Shown here: positions 55,162-64,000 of the stretch, in pieces | Position numbering within the stretch: the stretch's first letter is position 1 | How the letters are laid out: every line of letters starts with the position of its first letter | NCBI GenBank assembly: GCA_902538565.1 | Contig: CACBFQ010000002.1 | Span: 221,908-285,907 of the forward strand | Reading direction: 5' to 3' | DNA length: 64,000 nt | From: an uncultured Fidelibacterota bacterium | GTDB taxonomy: Bacteria; Fidelibacterota; Marinisomatia; Marinisomatales; Marinisomataceae | Notes under the pieces: model-generated | The model's database searches: none | Told to the model about the DNA's origin: nothing | The model's input: only the letters and a program-made list of their open reading frames with translations | Translations under genes and position numbers: made by a program

Positions 55162-56127
55162 TTATAGTAAACCAGTTGCACTTTTAACTTCTTGAAGTGT
55201 CTTTTGAGCAATTTTCTTTGCTTTATTTTGTCCCAAAATCATTTTTTGATTTACCTCATCAGGGTTTGCGAACAGTTGCTCTCTTTTTGATCTTTGCAAC
55301 TCAAAGAAAGAAATAATAGTCTCGATTAGTTCATTTTTAATGTCCATATATTTTAAACCGGGAGTATCGTACCTTTCTGCAAGCTCTTTTTTAGATTCAT
55401 CATTTAGAAATAATGAGTAAATCTTGAATAAAATTGTATTTTTATCTTTGGGTTCATTCAATCCAGCAGAATCAGTAACAATATTCATTACTTGATTTTT
55501 TATAGTGTCATTATCAGCAAAAATAGGAATAGTATTATTATATGATTTACTCATTTTTTGATTATCTACTCCAATTACAACCTCATTACTTTTATCTATT
55601 TCTATTTCAGGGATCGTGAAAATTTCTCCGAATGAGTTGTTAAATTTGATGGCAATATCTCTTGTCATTTCTAGATGTTGCTTTTGATCTTTACCAACAG
55701 GTACAATCTCAGATTGAAATAATAAAATATCGGATGCCATTAGAATTGGGTATGAAAATAGACCCATATTTGGCTTCAAGCCATTAGCTATTTTGTCTTT
55801 ATAAGAGGTTGATCTCTGCATCAAACCTACTGATGCAAAGTTTGACAAAATCCAAGCTAGCTCCGTTACTTCAGGGACGTGTGATTGAACCCAAAATGTC
55901 GATTGATCTGGGTCAATTCCAAGAGCTAAGAGGTCAATAAATGCTTCTCGAGTATTTGCTTCAAGTTTGACTTTATCATTAATTGAAGTCATTGAATGAT
56001 AATTTGCTACAAAGCAGAATAATTCTGATTCATTTTGAAATTGAATCATCCTTTCTATCATTCCAAAATAATTTCCAATATGAAGTTGCCCTGAAGGCTG
56101 TGCACCGCTTAAAATTCTTTTTTTCAT
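55162..56127 (-). CDS. trpS: Tryptophan--tRNA ligase
   Basis: SGAQPSGQLHIGNY, YPILMASDIL, VGKDQKQH, KMSKS. Confidence 0.98.
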   Translation of the reverse strand: MKKRILSGAQPSGQLHIGNYFGMIERMIQFQNESELFCFVANYHSMTSINDKVKLEANTREAFIDLLALGIDPDQSTFWVQSHVPEVTELAWILSNFASVGLMQRSTSYKDKIANGLKPNMGLFSYPILMASDILLFQSEIVPVGKDQKQHLEMTRDIAIKFNNSFGEIFTIPEIEIDKSNEVVIGVDNQKMSKSYNNTIPIFADNDTIKNQVMNIVTDSAGLNEPKDKNTILFKIYSLFLNDESKKELAERYDTPGLKYMDIKNELIETIISFFELQRSKREQLFANPDEVNQKMILGQNKAKKIAQKTLQEVKSATGLL

Positions 56128-56130
56128 AAA

Positions 56131-56658
56131 CTAATTTTTACTTTGAAAAAGGTATTCTTTCCATCCCTCATTCTCTTGATTAATATATTGATTAAAATAC
56201 ATAAATCTATTCGGTTTTTTTGGAACTTTCATCAGTTTCATATTTGCCTCAACAAGAGTTCTATTACCCTTCCTTGAATTACAAGGAGAGCAAGCAATAA
56301 TCAAATTTTCCCAAGAGTCTTTTCCACCTTTTTGTTTAGGTATGATATGATCAATAGTTAAGTTTGATTTTGAGCCACAATACTGACAGGAAGAATGATC
56401 TCTCATTAGCAAGTTTTTTCGGTTTAAAACAACATCTAAGCTATTAAAAGAGACATACTTCTTTAATTTAACAACACTCGGAACTTTCATTTGCATTGAG
56501 GGAGAATGAATATGATGATCATAATTCATTAAGATATCTACTTTATCTAAAAAATATAAACAAATTGCACGCTTAGAATTACATACGCCTAAAGGTAAAT
56601 AACTTGCATTTAATATTAGTGTTAAGTTATTAAGGTGACTGATATCATGTTTAGACAT
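56131..56658 (-). CDS. HNH endonuclease (McrA-like, zinc-binding)
   Basis: LILNASY.PL, RD..CQYCG, LTIDHIIP..KGG..SWEN...AC..CN..KG. Confidence 0.92.
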   Translation of the reverse strand: MSKHDISHLNNLTLILNASYLPLGVCNSKRAICLYFLDKVDILMNYDHHIHSPSMQMKVPSVVKLKKYVSFNSLDVVLNRKNLLMRDHSSCQYCGSKSNLTIDHIIPKQKGGKDSWENLIIACSPCNSRKGNRTLVEANMKLMKVPKKPNRFMYFNQYINQENEGWKEYLFQSKN

Positions 56659-56691
56659 ACAACAATTTATAAATAATCATTTACATTGTAC

Positions 56692-56877
56692 AAAATAAAG
56701 TTTAAAGTTTTATAGCAATTGTAGGGAATAAAGTGAAAAACTTTAGCAGTCCCCGCTACTGTAATTACTGAGATTTAATAATAGCCATTCAACATTGTTG
56801 GAGAAGGAATTAAATCATTTTAGGTATAAGCCAGGAGACCTTATTTGCAAAAATATTAATAAACTTCGGAGGAAAGT
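56692..56877 (+). ncRNA. Cobalamin (AdoCbl-class) riboswitch
   Basis: AGGGAA, P4 aaag-tgaaaaa-cttt, GCAGTCCCCGCTACTGT, extension gatttaat/attaaatc with GCCATT...GAAGG, B12 box AAGCCAGGAGACC; immediately upstream of a TonB-dependent receptor. The 5' boundary is approximate. Confidence 0.92.
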
Positions 56878-58938
56878 ATGATGAAAAAATCATATATATT
56901 ACTAATAGTATTAATATCAAATCTGTTTGGACAAACTTTTACTGGTAATGTTAAGGACGTATCTGGAACTGAAATATCTTATGTTGTAATTGAAGAATTA
57001 AATTCAGAGTCACAAGAAAGAAATTGGACAATTTCAGATGAGAGTGGTGGTTTCTCAATCAATATCAATAGTGAATCAGATGTTTTATTTCAAAGAATAG
57101 GATTTAAAGATGTCGTTGTAAAACCAGACCAATTCGGTAAATCTATAATTATGGTCAAAGAAGATATATCACTTGAAGAAGTTGATGTGTATGGTAAGAA
57201 AAAAGAGGTATATCTTAAAAATAAGACTTTATTAAATAATTTAGGAATTTATTCAAGAGGTGGATCTCTTAATCAAATTCCTTCTCTAGAAATGAGGACC
57301 TATGGTGGATATGCTGGAGTCACCTCCGCATCTTTTGACGGTGGATATGCTAGACATACAAAAGTTCTTTACAATGGAATTGATTTGACTGATGCAATGA
57401 ATGGTCAGGTTGATCTTTCTACTCTACCTTCTTTCGCTCTCCAATCTGTTAATTACAGATTAAATTCTGGAACAAAATTTGGTTCTGGCTCTATTGATGG
57501 TTCACTAAACATTAATAATAATATTTTAAATAATAATGTATTCTTTAGTGTAGGAGATTTTGGATTTTCACAGTACGGAGCTAATTATTCTATAAACAGA
57601 AAAACTTCAAAAAGAAATATTTCATTTGGTAAAACCTCATATGATGGAGATTATAAATATTCTGATTCCTCAGGAAATAAGGTTAAACGATTAAATAATT
57701 ATTTAGATCAATTTTTTCTTTCTGTTGATAGACAATTTCTTATCAGAGAAGACTTTCTACTAAATATATTTACACTGGTAACTGAGAATGTTAGAGGAGC
57801 ATCAGGGAGTACAAGTTTTCCATCACCGAATGCCACAAGAACGGATGACTTTGAATTATTTGCTTTATCCTTCAATAAGTTTTTTGAAAATGGTTCACTT
57901 GATTTGTATATGAATAGATCAAATAATTACCAAGAATTTGATGATTCAGAAGGATCTTTCCCAATTTATAGTGAACACGCACTTGACTATTCAGCTTTTG
58001 GGTTCAAAGGAAATCAAACAATAAATCCGTCTTTTAATTATGAAGCTGTTTTCAATATAAAATCTGAACGAGTTGACAGCACTGAATTACAAAAAGAAGA
58101 GTTGGAAACAACGTCATTTTCGTTTGTTGGTAATTATGTTAATTCTGACTACGACTTCAAGGTTTCTCCTTCAATGCGCTACGATTCAAGGGAAGAAAAT
58201 AACAAAACAACTTATAATTTAGGGTTTGAAGCAATAAATCAATTTGTTGATTCTGGTAGTTCATTTGACTTTAACCTAGATATAGGTTCATCATTTCAAT
58301 TTCCTACAATGAATGATTTATTTTGGCCAGATGGTTTATATAGTGGAGGCAATCCTAATTTAAAACCTGAAGAAAGTGAATACATTGCACTATCCATCTC
58401 AAATGAATCTTTGATTGGAAAAATAAAAGTAACTGCATCTTTTAAAGATTATGAAAATTTAATATTATGGCAGCCCAACGAATCTTTTAAATATATACCT
58501 ATAAATGTTTCCTCAGCTGAAAGAACGTCTTATAATTTTCAATACTTAAAAGATTTTTCAGACTTACATATGCAATTAACATATAATGTATATGACACTC
58601 TTGATAAAGACGTAGATGAAAAGCTATTATATGTACCTGATAGCTCTGCTAGCTTACTTCTTATATACAAATTAAATAATTTAACTCATTATTCATTAAA
58701 CTATAAGTTAGTTGGCGACAGGATTTTGCAATATCAGTCCTCATTTGCTGAACAAGTAAATGATAAATCATATGGATTACTTAGTCTTGGAGTGTCAAAT
58801 GTTTTTAATTGGGTGGATGAAAATTCAATAGTGCTTAATATGACTGTAGATAATCTTTTAGATGAAGAATATATTTCTACTATTGGTTACCCAGAACCTG
58901 GAAGAAGTATAAATTTAACTTTAGAATATAGGCTTTAG
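56878..58938 (+). CDS. btuB: TonB-dependent cobalamin receptor (BtuB-like)
   Basis: Signal peptide, N-terminal carboxypeptidase-regulatory-like domain, plug (HTKVLYNGI), NPNLKPEES, DNLLDEEY, GYPEPGRS C-terminus. B12 specificity is inferred from the riboswitch. Confidence 0.8.
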   Translation: MMKKSYILLIVLISNLFGQTFTGNVKDVSGTEISYVVIEELNSESQERNWTISDESGGFSININSESDVLFQRIGFKDVVVKPDQFGKSIIMVKEDISLEEVDVYGKKKEVYLKNKTLLNNLGIYSRGGSLNQIPSLEMRTYGGYAGVTSASFDGGYARHTKVLYNGIDLTDAMNGQVDLSTLPSFALQSVNYRLNSGTKFGSGSIDGSLNINNNILNNNVFFSVGDFGFSQYGANYSINRKTSKRNISFGKTSYDGDYKYSDSSGNKVKRLNNYLDQFFLSVDRQFLIREDFLLNIFTLVTENVRGASGSTSFPSPNATRTDDFELFALSFNKFFENGSLDLYMNRSNNYQEFDDSEGSFPIYSEHALDYSAFGFKGNQTINPSFNYEAVFNIKSERVDSTELQKEELETTSFSFVGNYVNSDYDFKVSPSMRYDSREENNKTTYNLGFEAINQFVDSGSSFDFNLDIGSSFQFPTMNDLFWPDGLYSGGNPNLKPEESEYIALSISNESLIGKIKVTASFKDYENLILWQPNESFKYIPINVSSAERTSYNFQYLKDFSDLHMQLTYNVYDTLDKDVDEKLLYVPDSSASLLLIYKLNNLTHYSLNYKLVGDRILQYQSSFAEQVNDKSYGLLSLGVSNVFNWVDENSIVLNMTVDNLLDEEYISTIGYPEPGRSINLTLEYRL

Positions 58939-60533
58939 TCATCAAATTCCCAGATAATTCCAAATGTTAATAAGCTACTCATCGGATTAAAAAATTCATG
59001 ATTTCTTAATGAATAATCTTCAGTATCATTAAACTTGTTTAAGGCATTATTTAGTCCAATTGTCAATAGTACATCGGATATGGCAATCTCTGTACTAATA
59101 GAGATATTTAAATAATCGTCAGAATTAGTACTATTTTTCCTTTGAGGCATATTTCTAAAATAATTAAAACTATATTCAGAATTATTTTTTGACATGTATT
59201 GCAAACTGAGTTTTCCCTTAATTCCCAAATTGTTATCAATAAATGATAAACCAAAAAGATAATCAAAAGCAAAAATATGAGGTCTATTTGAGCTAATTAA
59301 ACTATCATAAAAGTTGTAGGAGTGATTCAGATTGAATAAACCGTATTTAAATGGGATTGAAAATTTAGTTTGAAGGGACATCATTTGATCATCTTCAAAT
59401 TGATACCTTTCAGCCTCAGGAATAAATACATCTCCTAAATCATTTGGAATAACAAAATTAGTAGCACGAACGTATTTTAAAGTAGTAGATAAATCAATCT
59501 TTTGACTTAAAACATATGATGTTGAAATAGTTTGCCAGGTTTCTATATCCTTGCCTTCAAACTGCCCTGTATGGTTAAAATCATATGAATCTATCACCAC
59601 CATTGATGCTTGGTTTTTTATTTCATAAGAAATGCTTAATGAGCGGAAAATATTTCTATAGATAAAGTTTGGTTTGATTTTATCTTCTATAAAATCTATT
59701 CCATAAATGAAATTTCCAAAACTAAAATTATTAGCATTTGTTATTACAAATGAATTTCTTGAAAAACCTGTATTTAATCTTTCATTTTTGTAATGCTTAT
59801 TATCGAGTGCAATTTTTAAAGAAATAAAATTTCCATTATGTATGTGAGTACTTATTCTATTTCTATCTAAATCATACTTATTGTTTAAAGAATATTGAGA
59901 AATTTGAGATGACTCATATTTACTGAGGTGGTTTAATCTGATATCAAAATGATAGTCTCTTTTTACAAAACTATTTCCAATAGTTAGAGAAATAAAGTCT
60001 GAAAATTCACTATTTGAAGATGAATCCATGTCTGATGGTAAATTAAAATAAAATCCTGATTCTTCTCTAAAATATCCAAGAGTGGAATACATTTTATTAT
60101 TTTTAAAATTTCTAGAATAATTAAATTTGTAAAATAAGCTTAATGGCGGTTTTTCAGAATCAGCAAATTCAGAGTATTGTCCAAAAAAACTTTTCTTTTG
60201 TCCTTTAAATTGAAAAATTTCATCTTTAGAATTCTTTTTTAAACCTATACTAAGCTTATCAAAACCATAGTCACCAAATTCATAAATAAATTTGCTTTTA
60301 ACGTATGAAGAGTCTTCAGGAAGTTCTTCAAAAGTTAAATTTGTAAATTTATTTCTAAAGTTTTTTGAGGATCTGTCAATTAATAATTTTTCAAAAGACT
60401 GGTCTGAATTCCAAATTAATTGATTGTTATCTAGGATAACCGCAAAATGTTTTGATACATCAAATGGTATTTCTTCTTGTGATAAAAGGATAGATGATAA
60501 AAAATAAATTGATAAAAAATTTTTACAACTCAT
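58935..60533 (-). CDS. Hypothetical exported protein, probable outer-membrane beta-barrel (putative porin)
   Basis: Signal-like N-terminus, aromatic-rich amphipathic strands, terminal strand FGIIWEFDD. Confidence 0.45.
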   Translation of the reverse strand: MSCKNFLSIYFLSSILLSQEEIPFDVSKHFAVILDNNQLIWNSDQSFEKLLIDRSSKNFRNKFTNLTFEELPEDSSYVKSKFIYEFGDYGFDKLSIGLKKNSKDEIFQFKGQKKSFFGQYSEFADSEKPPLSLFYKFNYSRNFKNNKMYSTLGYFREESGFYFNLPSDMDSSSNSEFSDFISLTIGNSFVKRDYHFDIRLNHLSKYESSQISQYSLNNKYDLDRNRISTHIHNGNFISLKIALDNKHYKNERLNTGFSRNSFVITNANNFSFGNFIYGIDFIEDKIKPNFIYRNIFRSLSISYEIKNQASMVVIDSYDFNHTGQFEGKDIETWQTISTSYVLSQKIDLSTTLKYVRATNFVIPNDLGDVFIPEAERYQFEDDQMMSLQTKFSIPFKYGLFNLNHSYNFYDSLISSNRPHIFAFDYLFGLSFIDNNLGIKGKLSLQYMSKNNSEYSFNYFRNMPQRKNSTNSDDYLNISISTEIAISDVLLTIGLNNALNKFNDTEDYSLRNHEFFNPMSSLLTFGIIWEFDD

Positions 60534-61404
60534 CTCTTCTCATAAAATTAATTTTAGAATCTATAAAATTGATAGAATGTAATAATATTGCTTCAAGCGT
60601 TTGAGGCTCTACAGGGCTTTGCCACTCTTTTCTTCCTTGATACGATAAAATTAAATGTTCTAAACTAAGCTTATCATCATCTGGAAAATTTTTAACTTCA
60701 CAAATATATTTATTAACAATGTCTCTTGAAAGGATAGCATTTCCAACTAAAGATTTATGATTCGATTTAGAGATTGAAGAACCAAGATTAATAGAATAAA
60801 GCTTACCAATCTGATGAAGGCATACTCCAGATATTAATAAATCTATATCAATATTATAATGTGAACCGACCTGCTTTGCAATTTTTAAAAGTGATACTGT
60901 TTGCTCCATTAAACCATTTTGATAATTGTAATGATATGAGATGCTAGCAGGATAAACTTTAAACTTTTCCTTATGGTCTCTTAAGATATTTTTTGTGACT
61001 TTTTTCAAATGTTTCTTTGAAATTAAGTTTACTTCTTTAGTCAATTCTTTCCATAGTTCACTTGGATTTTTTTTAGAAGTTGGAATCAAGTCAGATGCTT
61101 CGAATCCATATTTTTTATATTTTTTCTCATTAGCGCGAGAAATATTATCAATTTTGATTAATACATTTTCTCCATATTGATATGTTACACCTTTTACAGC
61201 TACGGGATCTCCATTACTAAACTTTTTAGAAAGTTTTTGAACATTATCCCATATTCTTGCTCTAATTAAACCCGACTTATCTTGTAAAAGTAAATTTAAA
61301 TAGGTTGAACCGTCTTTTTTCTTCAGTGATTTTTTTTCTAAACATAAATAGAATCCTTGGAGCTTCATATCAGCAACCATATTTGAAATAAGAATGGATT
61401 TCAT
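60523..61404 (-). CDS. YhaM/Cbf1-like OB-fold + HD-domain protein with degenerate HD site
   Basis: OB-fold (YLNLLLQDKSGLIRARIWD), YPA, LLISGVCLHQIGK, HLILSYQG, EW.SP..P.TLEAILLH. Start set at ATG 61404, just after the fur stop; the track start is 61428. Confidence 0.85.
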   Translation of the reverse strand: MKSILISNMVADMKLQGFYLCLEKKSLKKKDGSTYLNLLLQDKSGLIRARIWDNVQKLSKKFSNGDPVAVKGVTYQYGENVLIKIDNISRANEKKYKKYGFEASDLIPTSKKNPSELWKELTKEVNLISKKHLKKVTKNILRDHKEKFKVYPASISYHYNYQNGLMEQTVSLLKIAKQVGSHYNIDIDLLISGVCLHQIGKLYSINLGSSISKSNHKSLVGNAILSRDIVNKYICEVKNFPDDDKLSLEHLILSYQGRKEWQSPVEPQTLEAILLHSINFIDSKINFMRRDEL

Positions 61405-61408
61405 CTTA

Positions 61409-61873
61409 TTAACTTTTTGAATGTGCACAATTGCTATCTTTGCAAGTACCGGATAATTGATGTACGCGTTTTGTAAGGCTCATATTTAAGTCATCAGCAA
61501 TTTTCTTTTCGATTGAGGGAATTTTATTGTCATAAAATTCAAATATTTCTCCGCAATCTTCGCAGACAATGTGATCATGATTTGGAGTAATTGTTTTTTT
61601 ATTGTGCTCATAAAGAAATTTTCCGCTATCTAAAGTTATTTTCTTTAAAAGATTATGTTTTACAAATACATCAATTGTTCTATATAATGTGGCTCTTGAA
61701 ACATTAATTTTCTTTTTTTTGAGATCGCTAAGAATGGTTTCAGTATCACGATGACTATCTGTAGAACAAAGCTCATCCCAAATGTCAAGCCTTTGTTTAG
61801 TAGCTCTCAATCCTTCACTTTTGAGGACTGCCTCAACTTCTATATGAAATCTACATGGTATTAAATTCTGCAT
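61409..61873 (-). CDS. fur: Fur-family transcriptional regulator
   Basis: LRATKQR, SRATLYRT, HDHIVCEDCG, C-terminal GTCKDSNC. The metal specificity (Fur/Zur/PerR) is not resolved. Confidence 0.9.
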   Translation of the reverse strand: MQNLIPCRFHIEVEAVLKSEGLRATKQRLDIWDELCSTDSHRDTETILSDLKKKKINVSRATLYRTIDVFVKHNLLKKITLDSGKFLYEHNKKTITPNHDHIVCEDCGEIFEFYDNKIPSIEKKIADDLNMSLTKRVHQLSGTCKDSNCAHSKS

Positions 61874-61899
61874 ACATCAAATTACACTAAATTGATTTT

Positions 61900-64000
61900 T
61901 TAATCTATTTTTTTTAAACGAGCGTACTTCACAATTAATTTTTTTCTTAAACCACCATCAAATTCAACACCAACTTTTTGATTTTCCCCCGTACCACTCA
62001 AAACAAGAATAGTGCCTATTCCAAAGAGATTATGTTGAACTTGATCTCCAATTTTAAAGTCATCAAACTCTGTAACTGTTCTTGAAATTTGAATTTTTTT
62101 CTGTTCTCCAGTACCAACAATTCTTCGAGTATAAACTAATTTATAAGATTTAACTTTTATAACATCTTCATCAATTTCATTTAAAAAATCTGATTGAACA
62201 AATGATGTGGTATTCATAGCTCCAAATCTTCTTCTGTATTTTGCATTTAAAAGGTATACTTGATCCATAGCTCTTGTCACTGCGACATAAAACAATCTTC
62301 TTTCTTCTTCCATTTGATCGGGTCCATCATCAATTCTTACTAGTGGAAATAGTCCTTGTTCAAGTCCAGCGATAAATACGGTCGGAAATTCAAGACCTTT
62401 TGCTGCATGTACAGTCATTAGTGTAATAGAATTATCTTTATCATCCCATTCATCAATATCTGTAAACAGTGAAATTTCTTGAAGAAAGTCTCTTAAATTT
62501 CCACCAACTTGATCAGAGAACTTATCAACAGATGCTTTAAGCTCTTGAATATTATCATATCGATCTTGTTCAACAGGATTATTTTTATAATAATTTTCAA
62601 TATTAAACTCTTCTAATAAAGTTCTTAATAACTCTTTAGGGTCAAGAGTTTCTAGCAAACTGCTAAATTTCTTGATTGATGCATGAAAACTTTCAATTGA
62701 ATCTTGCTGCTTTCCTCTTAATTTCAAATCTCTACAAAATTCAAGACTATCAAAAAGTGAAATTTTCTTTTTGGATGCTAACTCAACAAACATTTTTATT
62801 GATTTTTCTCCGATGCCTCTTACAGGAAAATTAATGATACGCCTAAGAGCTACATCATCATTACTATTTGCCACCAAAGTTAAATATGCTAACACATCTT
62901 TAATCTCTTTCCTATCATAGAATTTTGTCCCACCTACAATATTATATGGAATTCCTTCTTTTACCATCGCTTGCTCAATAGATCTTGACTGTGCATTTGT
63001 TCTGTATAAAACTGCAAAATCTTTAAAAGTACTTTTATTAAGTTTTATTTCAGTCTTAATTGCATCACATATAGCATTTGATTCTTCTTCATCACTTCCA
63101 GTAGAAATCAGTGAAATCTTTTCTCCTTTTCCTCGTGTTGCTTCCAACTTCTTTTCAGCTCTATTTTTATTATTAGAAACAACAGACCAAGCTCCATCAA
63201 GAATACGTTGAGTTGATCTATAATTTTTTTCAAGCTTAATCTCAATGTTTTTTGAAAATGTGTCCTGAAAGTTGGTAAGGATGTTATCAATATTAGCTCC
63301 TCTCCAACCATAAATGGATTGGTCATCATCGCCAACTACAGTAATATTTTGATGTTTTCCAGCTAGTAAAGATACAATTTCAAATTGTGGTGAATTGGTA
63401 TCTTGAAATTCATCAACTAATACATATTTCCATGTGCTTTGATAAAAATTTAAAATTTTAGCATTTTCTTTTAACAGTCGAATTGGGAGCAGAATTAAAT
63501 CATTAAAATCTAGTGCATTGTTTGATTTTAATTTTTCACAATATGCCTTAAAAACCTCAACAATTTTTTCATCTTCAAATGTTTGAGCTTTGGATTCTAC
63601 ATCTACAATTGAAAGATTATCATTTTTAAACTTATCAATTTGAACTTTCAAGAAACCAACGTTGAGCTCTTTAAATTCAGAAAGATTCAAATTTTCAACA
63701 ACCTCTTTAATAACAGATTTTTGATCGGAAGTATCGTAAATAGTAAAACTAGAATTATATCCTTCATCCAATGTTGAGATGTGCATTCTTAACATGCGAG
63801 CACCTATTGAATGAAATGTTCCAACATTTACTCCATCACAAGATATGCTTTCTTGAATTCTTAATTTCATTTCTGCAGCGGCTTTATTGGTGAAGGTTAA
63901 TGCTAATATTTCTTCTGGTTTAAAAAGCTTTTCTTTGATTAAATGCCAAACTTTATAAGTAAGTACTCTTGTTTTTCCACTTCCTGCTCCTGCAAACACT
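61900..64000 (-). CDS. uvrD: UvrD/PcrA superfamily 1 helicase, 5' end outside the window
   Basis: AGAGSGKT, TFTNKAA, VDEFQDTN, VGDDDQSIYGWRGA, NYRST, YRTNAQSR, HAAKGLEF, EERRLFYVAVTRA, C-terminal Tudor-like domain. Confidence 0.96.
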   Translation of the reverse strand, partial: VFAGAGSGKTRVLTYKVWHLIKEKLFKPEEILALTFTNKAAAEMKLRIQESISCDGVNVGTFHSIGARMLRMHISTLDEGYNSSFTIYDTSDQKSVIKEVVENLNLSEFKELNVGFLKVQIDKFKNDNLSIVDVESKAQTFEDEKIVEVFKAYCEKLKSNNALDFNDLILLPIRLLKENAKILNFYQSTWKYVLVDEFQDTNSPQFEIVSLLAGKHQNITVVGDDDQSIYGWRGANIDNILTNFQDTFSKNIEIKLEKNYRSTQRILDGAWSVVSNNKNRAEKKLEATRGKGEKISLISTGSDEEESNAICDAIKTEIKLNKSTFKDFAVLYRTNAQSRSIEQAMVKEGIPYNIVGGTKFYDRKEIKDVLAYLTLVANSNDDVALRRIINFPVRGIGEKSIKMFVELASKKKISLFDSLEFCRDLKLRGKQQDSIESFHASIKKFSSLLETLDPKELLRTLLEEFNIENYYKNNPVEQDRYDNIQELKASVDKFSDQVGGNLRDFLQEISLFTDIDEWDDKDNSITLMTVHAAKGLEFPTVFIAGLEQGLFPLVRIDDGPDQMEEERRLFYVAVTRAMDQVYLLNAKYRRRFGAMNTTSFVQSDFLNEIDEDVIKVKSYKLVYTRRIVGTGEQKKIQISRTVTEFDDFKIGDQVQHNLFGIGTILVLSGTGENQKVGVEFDGGLRKKLIVKYARLKKID

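Follow-up and report, generated by a model that had tools for sequence, protein, structure and literature searches.

The YhaM proteins of B. subtilis, S. aureus (where the enzyme is called Cbf1) and S. pyogenes are Mn/Co-dependent 3'-5' exo(deoxy)ribonucleases whose structural characterization is only recent. In other families, degenerate HD domains such as HDOD (PF08668) and the non-catalytic HD-GYP variants (e.g. YN-GYP) are used for regulation, and nuclease homologues that have no catalytic activity but bind RNA or channel it are known from the RNase-PH-like ring of the eukaryotic exosome core and from Exuperantia. In the dark ocean few uncultured bacterial groups are as abundant as SAR406 (Marinimicrobia), to which our locus belongs. 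Cryo-EM of B. subtilis YhaM placed the metal ligands at H163, H193, D194, H250, H251 and D274 (PMC12107432), and the HD sites of the family were called invariant (PMC11347170). The S. aureus mutants D193A and H192A/D193A are inactive yet bind RNA, with trace activity of D193A left at high concentration (PMC11347170), and B. subtilis H193A/D194A is inactive and remains dimeric, with stronger ssDNA binding (PMC12107432). B. subtilis YhaM also acts in ssDNA uptake (PMC12107432). Our literature search returned no paper linking YhaM with Marinimicrobia or SAR406, and none describing a natural YhaM without its ligands.

The initial annotation had placed a YhaM homologue at 60523-61404 of the window, i.e. 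the whole 64-kb stretch of DNA that was analysed, downstream of uvrD and fur. The open reading frame is indeed present at this position, on the minus strand, which had been left unstated, and its surroundings are as described. We refer to the gene as yhaM', and the array with its domains reads as follows:

61900..63999, minus strand: PcrA/UvrD-type helicase gene, first in the array, 5' end beyond the window (TIGR01073 pcrA, E 2.3e-216)
61409..61873, minus strand: Fur-family regulator gene, directly upstream of yhaM', 4 nt from its stop to the yhaM' start (PF01475, E 8.8e-28)
60523..61404, minus strand: yhaM', YhaM-like coding sequence, 293 aa plus stop, YhaM/Cbf1 homologue whose HD pocket is remodelled
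61135..61365, minus strand: N-terminal OB fold of yhaM', about residues 14-90, aromatic residues W52 and Y77 retained
60529..61065, minus strand: C-terminal all-helical HD-fold domain of yhaM', about residues 114-292, without the metal-ligand set
58935..60533, minus strand: 532-aa gene, downstream, 11-nt overlap with yhaM'; signal peptide, then a putative all-beta, TonB-dependent-transporter-like barrel

We compared the yhaM' product with the YhaM family defined as OB plus HD 3'-5' exonucleases (NF010007 / COG3481). Homology to characterised YhaM is full-length: the NF010007 profile matches residues 16-290 (E 1.5e-42), and HMMER alignments link the protein to B. subtilis YhaM (PDB 9h3f, E 3e-35) and S. 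aureus Cbf1/YhaM (PDB 9o7t, E 1.2e-31), with about 31% identity to YhaM/Cbf1 and the same OB plus HD architecture. The product scores 145.8 bits against a curated NF010007 equivalog cut-off of 460 bits, and near-canonical Marinimicrobia orthologues also fall below it (172.8 and 210 bits), so that this cut-off splits Firmicutes YhaM from that of distant phyla and does not divide active from inactive proteins. The AF2 model had a pLDDT of 92.3 and an intact fold, and its top Foldseek match in the PDB was 9h3f_A (E 4.5e-12, TM (target) 0.80, rmsd 2.3 A, 183 columns); model and match together give the C-terminal HD-domain fold of YhaM. The N-terminal OB fold was recognized by PF01336 (E 8.9e-7, 29.2 bits against a cut-off of 27) and forms a five-strand barrel in the model (strands 14-28, 34-42, 45-51, 67-77 and 80-90), for which Foldseek returned RPA/SSB OB domains. 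In the alignment W52 and Y77 stand opposite W51 and Y76 of B. subtilis, so the OB fold carries the conserved Trp and Tyr of YhaM; within the query clade 100% of sequences have W52 and 96% have Y77. The scaffold motifs said to be intact (YPA, HLILS, EWxSP, EAxLLH) are all there, and among the elements shared with YhaM/Cbf1 are PA, GLxE, DLL, LHxxGK, HLILS, ExxSP, EAxLLH and the D that follows. A C-terminal tail of about 28 residues, present in other homologues, is absent.

The H...HD...HH...D metal-ligand motif is what the protein lacks. It had been claimed that nearly all HD metal ligands are replaced, and the alignments to 9h3f and 9o7t reproduced every listed substitution (HY, GLMEQ, LHQIGK, GN, SYQG and HSIN): five of the six published ligands are changed, B. 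subtilis H163, D194, H250, H251 and D274 corresponding to Q168, Q198, Y255, Q256 and N279, and H193 (H197 here) is the sole survivor. The altered codons are these:

60928..60930, minus strand: codon Y159, second His of 'HH' replaced (SYHYNY); 92% H in canonical sequences, TAT/TAC in orthologues
60901..60903, minus strand: codon Q168, ligand H163 replaced (GLxxH to GLMEQ)
60811..60816, minus strand: codons H197-Q198, CAT CAG as claimed; His of the HD dyad kept, Asp D194 changed to Gln
60739..60741, minus strand: codon N222, 'GH' His replaced (GH to GN); 100% H in canonical sequences
60637..60642, minus strand: codons Y255-Q256, ligands H250 and H251 replaced (SHHG to SYQG)
60568..60570, minus strand: codon N279, ligand D274 replaced (HxID to HSIN)

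PMC12107432 does not list the histidines of 'HH' and 'GH' among the ligands; they are 92-100% conserved among 122 canonical representatives. Six positions that are 100% conserved in these 122 representatives are altered in the query (H168Q, D198Q, G217K, H222N, H255Y and D279N), more than chance would give, and the departures from the canonical consensus further include Y159, E204S and G262Q. LHQIGK, in place of the canonical LHDxGK, was found in 121 of 121 sequences. The surrounding scaffold residues H197, K201, E167, H250, E271 and D282 (query numbering) are retained. A Pfam search at E<=1 gave no HD (PF01966) match, a domain carried by many sister orthologues, and the TIGR00277 HDIG profile reached 13.2 bits against a cut-off of 27.6. 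Neither HDOD (PF08668) nor HD-GYP was among the Pfam matches at E<=1, which rules out these other degenerate HD families as the identity of yhaM'.

The orthologue alignment that had been suggested as a check showed the substitutions fixed in every orthologue found. From 120 database (metagenome) clusters and 25 full-length genome loci we obtained 141 unique orthologues of 60-100% identity, all Marinimicrobia, with identical residues at every substituted ligand position; 123 of 293 columns are invariant overall. The substituted codons vary synonymously only (TAT/TAC, CAA/CAG, AAT/AAC) and their amino acids are constant. Wherever dS is defined, dN/dS was 0.04-0.18 for the whole gene and 0.02-0.17 for the HD part, so that yhaM', HD half included, is under strong purifying selection. 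The start codon (ATG 61404, MKS...) is the same in 25 of 25 full-length orthologous loci.

Elsewhere in Marinimicrobia, near-canonical or partly degenerate YhaM genes occupy the same syntenic position, and yhaM' is thus their positional orthologue. A paralogue was ruled out by the common neighbourhood of P0121, P0127, P0271 (P0122 cluster), P0300 (P0128 cluster) and P0138, which consists of HNH-TrpRS-ScpAB and/or YceG-UvrD-Fur. Identity to the nearest canonical relatives, which occupy this chromosomal position in other lineages, does not exceed 41%, and no close relative with an intact HD motif was found among the orthologues; the combination of intact close relatives and relaxed selection that would have spoken for an incipient pseudogene was therefore not seen. 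A tblastn search of the 64-kb window with five canonical or near-canonical homologues returned no second YhaM copy. Metal-site loss at the syntenic locus occurred in the query clade, in the P0138 lineage, in P0127 (D194G) and, as a polymorphism, in the P0122 lineage, and is independent in several sister lineages. In one sister lineage the replacements at these ligand positions are scattered and follow no consistent pattern.

The adjacency of fur and yhaM' is kept in 25 of 25 full-length genome loci. The best NCBIfam matches of the fur product were PerR and Fur, all under their cut-offs. RNA-derived contigs from four metatranscriptomes cover yhaM', and one of 2.7 kb spans 60520-62530 (yhaM'-fur-uvrD), with the caveat that DNA carry-over is possible in such contigs. 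A promoter and terminator scan of 56000-64000 gave counts at or under the shuffled expectation; it found no minus-strand terminator inside the array, which fits an operon and is otherwise uninformative. A BtuB-like receptor under cobalamin-riboswitch control lies convergent to the operon. Downstream, the 532-aa product has no Pfam or NCBIfam match and its only homologues are 'hypothetical' Marinimicrobia proteins. Its AF2 model is of low confidence (pLDDT 53) with Cir, ZnuD, PfeA and BtuB as best folds (TM 0.5-0.57), and we tentatively regard it as a TonB-dependent-transporter-like barrel. Phylum-wide, an S-component-like membrane protein comes after the YhaM orthologue and a signal-peptide protein of 530-600 aa comes next, the genes overlapping by 4-14 nt or lying 16 nt apart; the S-component gene is lost from the query clade. 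In sister lineages feoAB or an iron-transport gene stands beside the YhaM orthologue.

With its catalytic and ligand residues replaced, under purifying selection and covered by transcripts, yhaM' has the marks of a pseudoenzyme, and we think it probable that its product is a selected, non-catalytic nucleic-acid binder, in other words a pseudo-nuclease, derived from the Mn/Co-dependent 3'-5' exonuclease YhaM. This supports the earlier proposal of a catalytically dead homologue kept for nucleic-acid binding or as a scaffold, the loss of activity being suggested by ligand loss and the published mutants. A pocket without both Asp and three of the four His ligands would be unable to hold two divalent cations, and with the two-cation site phosphodiester hydrolysis would be lost. 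The metal-dependent hexamer would probably not form either, leaving a dimer, as ligand loss and the published mutants suggest. Single-stranded nucleic acid would still be bound through W52 and Y77 of the OB fold, and the polar pocket of H197, K201, Q168, Q198, N222, Y255, Q256, N279 and D282 may hold a 3' end or phosphate by hydrogen bonds and leave it uncleaved. In that case the protein, co-expressed with the PcrA/UvrD helicase and the Fur-family regulator, could serve as a factor that binds, protects or scaffolds.

The pseudo-nuclease reading fits the engineered YhaM mutants, which have lost the HD Asp and bind ssRNA or ssDNA with neither cleavage nor a metal-dependent hexamer (PMC12107432, PMC11347170). 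Those mutants carry one or two alanine changes made in the laboratory, whereas here nearly the whole site has been turned into conserved polar residues that selection has kept across a deep clade. As in YhaM/Cbf1 the gene adjoins DNA-repair genes, but the host is a Gram-negative of the FCB group, and fur and the gene of a putative outer-membrane barrel are part of the operon. The likeness to the HDOD and HD-GYP variants lies in an HD fold that survives ligand loss and is kept for a non-hydrolytic role; the query differs in having no match to their profiles, an OB fold instead of signalling domains as partner and its origin in another HD subfamily. The exosome core and Exuperantia similarly keep an exonuclease fold as a nucleic-acid-binding scaffold after catalysis was lost, though their folds and lineages are unrelated and their partners are established. 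The label 'exoribonuclease' may be too narrow for the ancestral activity, since B. subtilis YhaM is also a 3'-deoxyribonuclease, and automated annotation such as the IMG '3'-5' exoribonuclease' probably over-calls RNA- or DNA-degrading activity in SAR406 genomes.

We thus have a natural, deeply conserved YhaM lineage without the HD site that was described as invariant across homologues, and it appears that the YhaM scaffold has a selectable function free of hydrolysis. The protein offers a ready-made system in which YhaM binding and assembly can be told apart from catalysis, and the stepwise ligand loss seen across positional orthologues of one phylum is a clean case study of the passage from enzyme to pseudoenzyme. 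Some points speak against a pseudo-nuclease. Weak or altered activity is possible, since Gln, Asn and Tyr are able to serve as ligands to hard cations; the invariance could reflect structural packing, with a hydrogen-bond network in place of the metal cluster; and a simple nucleic-acid-binding role leaves the tight operon link to the outer-membrane barrel unexplained.

In an alternative that we consider unlikely, the dead HD pocket has turned into a sensor of small molecules or cargo, is linked to transport across the envelope and handles an imported nucleotide-like substrate or DNA. The yhaM' product would be the cytoplasmic receptor or handler for the co-translated outer-membrane barrel and, in other Marinimicrobia, also for an ECF-S-component-like permease. 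The tight phylum-wide gene order and the 11-nt overlap in the window would suit such a coupling, as would the TonB-dependent-transporter-like model of the partner, the convergent BtuB-like receptor and the ssDNA-uptake role of B. subtilis YhaM (PMC12107432). Against it stand the loss of the S-component gene from the very clade in question, the low confidence of the barrel model and a ligand that we cannot name; moreover the phylum synteny extends over many unrelated housekeeping genes (e.g. YceG, UvrD, HNH, TrpRS, ScpAB), which makes adjacency weak evidence. That the metal site was lost more than once and independently at a single syntenic locus, where the gene stays throughout in a tight operon with envelope transport-like proteins, leads us to speculate further that in pelagic Marinimicrobia the conserved, selected job of the YhaM orthologue is non-catalytic, the invariant polar pocket of the query clade being a metal-free site that binds a 3' end or a nucleotide-like cargo and is coupled to uptake. 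We hold this to be improbable; if it were true, the OB-HD architecture would have a new, non-enzymatic function.

It is rather improbable that yhaM' encodes an enzyme with an altered site, where the change from His to the O-donors Gln, Asn and Tyr switches Mn/Co to a hard cation (Mg or Ca), leaves a mononuclear site or allows metal-independent chemistry, an adaptation that the scarcity of trace metals in the open ocean could have favoured. All replacements are polar, strictly conserved and potential ligands, the six scaffold residues named above remain, and metal homeostasis is represented nearby by fur here and by the iron-transport genes of sister lineages. Yet both carboxylate ligands (D194 and D274) are neutralised, removing the charge that holds two divalent cations, and mutation of S. 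aureus D193 alone or of B. subtilis H193/D194 already abolishes YhaM activity. In this gene of 28% GC a single AT-directed change of the ancestral codon gives most of the replacements, as expected from relaxed constraint and no pointer to redesign, and the scattered replacements of the sister lineage are inconsistent at the same positions.

Finally, the loss of the catalytic residues and the apparent ongoing erosion at the same positions in a sister lineage might recall an incipient pseudogene or a sequencing or assembly artefact, a very improbable reading that the initial annotation had argued against and that is refuted by intact, equal-length frames that share one start across 25 independent genomes or MAGs and 120 metagenome clusters, by the low dN/dS and by the synonymous-only variation of codons for invariant residues. 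The same sequence was found in single-cell genomes, MAGs and metatranscriptomes, and the span of 60-99% identity among orthologues excludes one recent clone. The yhaM' protein does not diverge faster than its neighbours TrpRS, Fur and ScpA.

The NCBIfam YhaM model aligned to residues 16-290 of the window protein, the product of the YhaM-like gene yhaM' (E 1.5e-42), with a score of 145.8 bits that lies far below the equivalog cut-off of 460 bits. Among solved structures the best matches were B. subtilis YhaM (PDB 9h3f, E 3e-35) and S. aureus Cbf1/YhaM (9o7t, E 1.2e-31). The N-terminal OB fold (PF01336) was the only Pfam match and no HD domain was found at E<=1. An AlphaFold2 model from a 142-sequence alignment (mean pLDDT 92.3, pTM 0.85) predicted an OB barrel of five strands and, C-terminal to it, an all-helical domain, and Foldseek again placed 9h3f at the top (target TM 0.80, rmsd 2.3 A, 183 columns) with RPA/SSB OB domains as the next matches. 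Both the Pfam match and the modelled barrel agree with the intact OB-fold described in the initial annotation. The two-metal ligands seen by cryo-EM in B. subtilis YhaM are H163, H193, D194, H250, H251 and D274 (PMC12107432). HMMER alignment of these to the window protein gave Q168, H197, Q198, Y255, Q256 and N279; five of the six are replaced, as expected from the earlier reading that nearly all HD metal ligands were gone, and its CAT CAG at 60811-60816 is confirmed when the minus strand is read. Two more near-invariant histidines are replaced (the second H of 'HH' by Y159, the H of 'GH' by N222), as are E204 (by S), G217 (by K) and G262 (by Q). Compared with 122 canonical representatives, the query clade (the window protein and its orthologues) departs from the canonical set at six of its fully (100%) conserved positions: H168Q, D198Q, G217K, H222N, H255Y and D279N. 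The OB aromatics W52 and Y77 are the same in both sets, as are the flanking scaffold motifs that had been reported as kept. A C-terminal tail of about 28 residues, common to other homologues, is absent from the window protein. It is a YhaM descendant of the same architecture, but without the defining metal-ligand motif or the Pfam HD profile; the family's HD motif has been termed invariant (PMC11347170). Degenerate HD domains (HDOD, non-catalytic HD-GYP) and inert exonuclease scaffolds resemble it in concept, although it is a member of none of these families.

The gene lies downstream of uvrD-fur, as first annotated, within the following arrangement.

61900 to window end, minus strand: PcrA/UvrD helicase gene, preceding fur
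61409-61873, minus strand: Fur-family regulator gene, directly upstream of yhaM' (4 nt from fur stop to yhaM' start)
60523-61404, minus strand: yhaM' ORF, 293 codons, ATG at 61404
58935-60533, minus strand: 532-aa ORF after yhaM', with which it shares 11 nt
56878-58938, plus strand: TonB-dependent receptor gene; best NCBIfam matches are BtuB models, far under cut-off
56723-56841, plus strand: cobalamin riboswitch RF00174 (72.6 bits), directly 5' of the receptor gene
56131-56658, minus strand: small HNH endonuclease gene, 175 aa (PF01844, E 2.8e-17)

The ATG and the MKS... start are common to 25/25 full-length orthologous loci retrieved, and a GTG 24 nt upstream is unused. Assembled contigs from four marine metatranscriptomes cover yhaM'; one of 2.7 kb extends from the yhaM' stop across fur and into uvrD, which is consistent with a polycistronic transcript, DNA carry-over being possible. 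Public annotations of the proteins read 'hypothetical', 'HD domain-containing protein' or '3'-5' exoribonuclease'.

The adjoining genes raise the idea that the window protein is tied to transport. The 532-aa operon partner carries a signal peptide and matched no family in Pfam or NCBIfam; its homologues are hypothetical proteins from Marinimicrobia only. Its low-confidence model (pLDDT 53, N-terminal 90 residues unmodelled) suggests a barrel of about 22 strands resembling the TonB-dependent transporters Cir, ZnuD, PfeA and BtuB (TM 0.5-0.57). The BtuB-like receptor gene is convergent to the yhaM' operon with a 4 nt overlap, and the riboswitch-receptor pair recurs in six loci from relatives (L001, L012, L013, L019, L027 and L031). 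In other Marinimicrobia an ECF-transporter S-component-like membrane protein (PF12822 just under cut-off; DUF6580) is encoded between yhaM and the 532-aa-type partner, at these locus coordinates.

L027, 6986-7498: S-component-like gene, 16-nt gap after yhaM
L031, 7953-8483: S-component-like gene, start overlaps yhaM stop
L033, 7957-8607: S-component-like gene, start overlaps yhaM stop
L034, 7953-8471: S-component-like gene, start overlaps yhaM stop

A solitary vitamin transporter is one possible role for its product. The gene is missing from the window and from the rest of the query clade, which has lost it. Adjacency is weak evidence here because synteny across the phylum is conserved over many unrelated genes, and we consider a transport link unlikely. 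The barrel and receptor genes (56878-60533) also behave as a hypervariable cassette when L001-L004, L006 and L013 are compared. Genomes with flanking genes 95-99% identical to the window share about 61% identity in the barrel and about 71% in the receptor, yet in L013 yhaM' is 86% identical while the barrel reaches 95% and the receptor 92%. One breakpoint is apparently at the extreme 3' end of yhaM', and the pattern suggests that surface-protein alleles are swapped by recombination among SAR406 strains.

A search over 5.8 billion proteins gave 218 matches. The best 120 are 66-96% identical to the window protein, with all organism-named entries from Candidatus Marinimicrobia or Neomarinimicrobiota (SAR406), and carry LHQIGK and GN in 120/120, SYQG in 119/120 and the N of HSIN in all. 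In 141 unique clade sequences, including the outlying cluster representative P0121 at 60% identity, the replaced residues show almost no variation or none (exceptions being one Q256 variant and one N279S), against only 123/293 invariant columns in the whole protein. Packing within the structure could explain this later invariance just as ligand binding could, and for most replacements a single AT-directed mutation separates the present codon from the ancestral one in this gene of 28% GC; both points temper the idea of a purposeful new pocket. That the protein is an enzyme with an altered metal was rated less likely, and we regard it as quite improbable. Scanning GTDB species representatives recovered 26 loci from SAR406 single-cell genomes and MAGs (69-99% identical); 25 are full-length with intact ORFs of 291-295 codons, and the 26th ends at a contig edge. 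Nei-Gojobori dN/dS against the window copy was 0.04-0.18 wherever dS was defined, with equal or lower values in the HD half, and the protein's rate of divergence is about that of the neighbouring TrpRS, Fur and ScpA. In the 26 coding sequences each substituted codon is found in both synonymous forms (TAT/TAC, CAA/CAG, AAT/AAC) with zero amino-acid changes, direct evidence of purifying selection at those positions. A decaying pseudogene is very hard to credit; the initial annotation had already argued against simple decay from the many separate, mostly size-conserving substitutions, and the fixation under purifying selection that it raised is borne out in the relatives.

HMMER, run exhaustively over 1.84 billion cluster representatives, identified 5847 family members at E<=0.001. 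Among the best 150 the canonical signature predominates, the query clade forms a single branch with a long stem, and its closest outside relatives are at most 41% identical. The nearest of these are Marinimicrobia or FCB-group proteins encoded, as in the window, upstream of HNH-TrpRS-ScpA-ScpB and/or downstream of YceG-UvrD-Fur. Because they occupy the same chromosomal neighbourhood, yhaM' is the positional orthologue of YhaM rather than an additional paralogue. Most Marinimicrobia orthologues have H251Q as the sole ligand change, the lineage of cluster representative P0127 has D194G, and H250Y and H251R occur in representative P0122 itself. In the P0138 lineage (148 cluster members, contigs up to 1.9 Mb; L034 7001-7963), H193T, GH to Y, H250S, H251Y and D274K are found at an unchanged syntenic position, a heavy loss independent of and different from that of the query clade. 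The P0122-like proteins, of the L031 and L032 locus type, comprise 43 cluster representatives with at least 80% identity to P0122, and each of the 11 YhaM active-site positions varies among them (D194 to N or K in 9/43, H250 to Y or N in 7), D194 being in the most variable 7% of columns and 55% of columns being invariant; catalysis loss looks to be under way in this sister lineage. Within the phylum the metal site has been lost repeatedly, and several pelagic lineages of Marinimicrobia therefore appear able to dispense with catalysis, the query clade representing the fixed end state.

In S. aureus, D193A and H192A/D193A abolish catalysis and impair assembly while RNA binding is kept (PMC11347170). 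In B. subtilis, H193A/D194A eliminates activity, leaves the protein a dimer and raises ssDNA binding above the wild-type level, and the Y76A change in the OB fold abolishes binding (PMC12107432). Much more of the site is missing from the window protein than from these mutants, both carboxylates included, but the OB residues are retained. Building on the homology, fold, ligand loss, selection, expression and orthology established here, we infer for this reason a non-catalytic single-stranded nucleic-acid binder, which would neither bind metal nor hydrolyse its substrate, would retain nucleic-acid binding and is probably a dimer. The initial proposal of a catalytically dead protein kept for nucleic-acid binding thus gains support from ligand loss and selection; catalysis loss and binding are read across from the published mutants.

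Pseudoenzymes are common. In the literature searched we found no paper linking YhaM to Marinimicrobia or describing a natural ligand-less YhaM. The yhaM' product offers a clean, ancient and ocean-abundant case, set within a phylum-wide series of independent ligand losses. In L027 (3868-5762), from the P0127 lineage, RtcB RNA ligase and archease take the place of uvrD-fur and adjoin the YhaM orthologue in divergent orientation; this RNA-repair setting may hint at a role connected with RNA ends. The 64 kb window yielded no tRNA genes. At 160-56658 the minus strand carries nearly all long ORFs, whose junctions are short or overlap, an extreme co-orientation over the first 56 kb that is typical of a streamlined genome. 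In all related loci of the phylum the HNH gene keeps its place between riboswitch and TrpRS, and its product looks like a stable housekeeping protein and not a mobile one.
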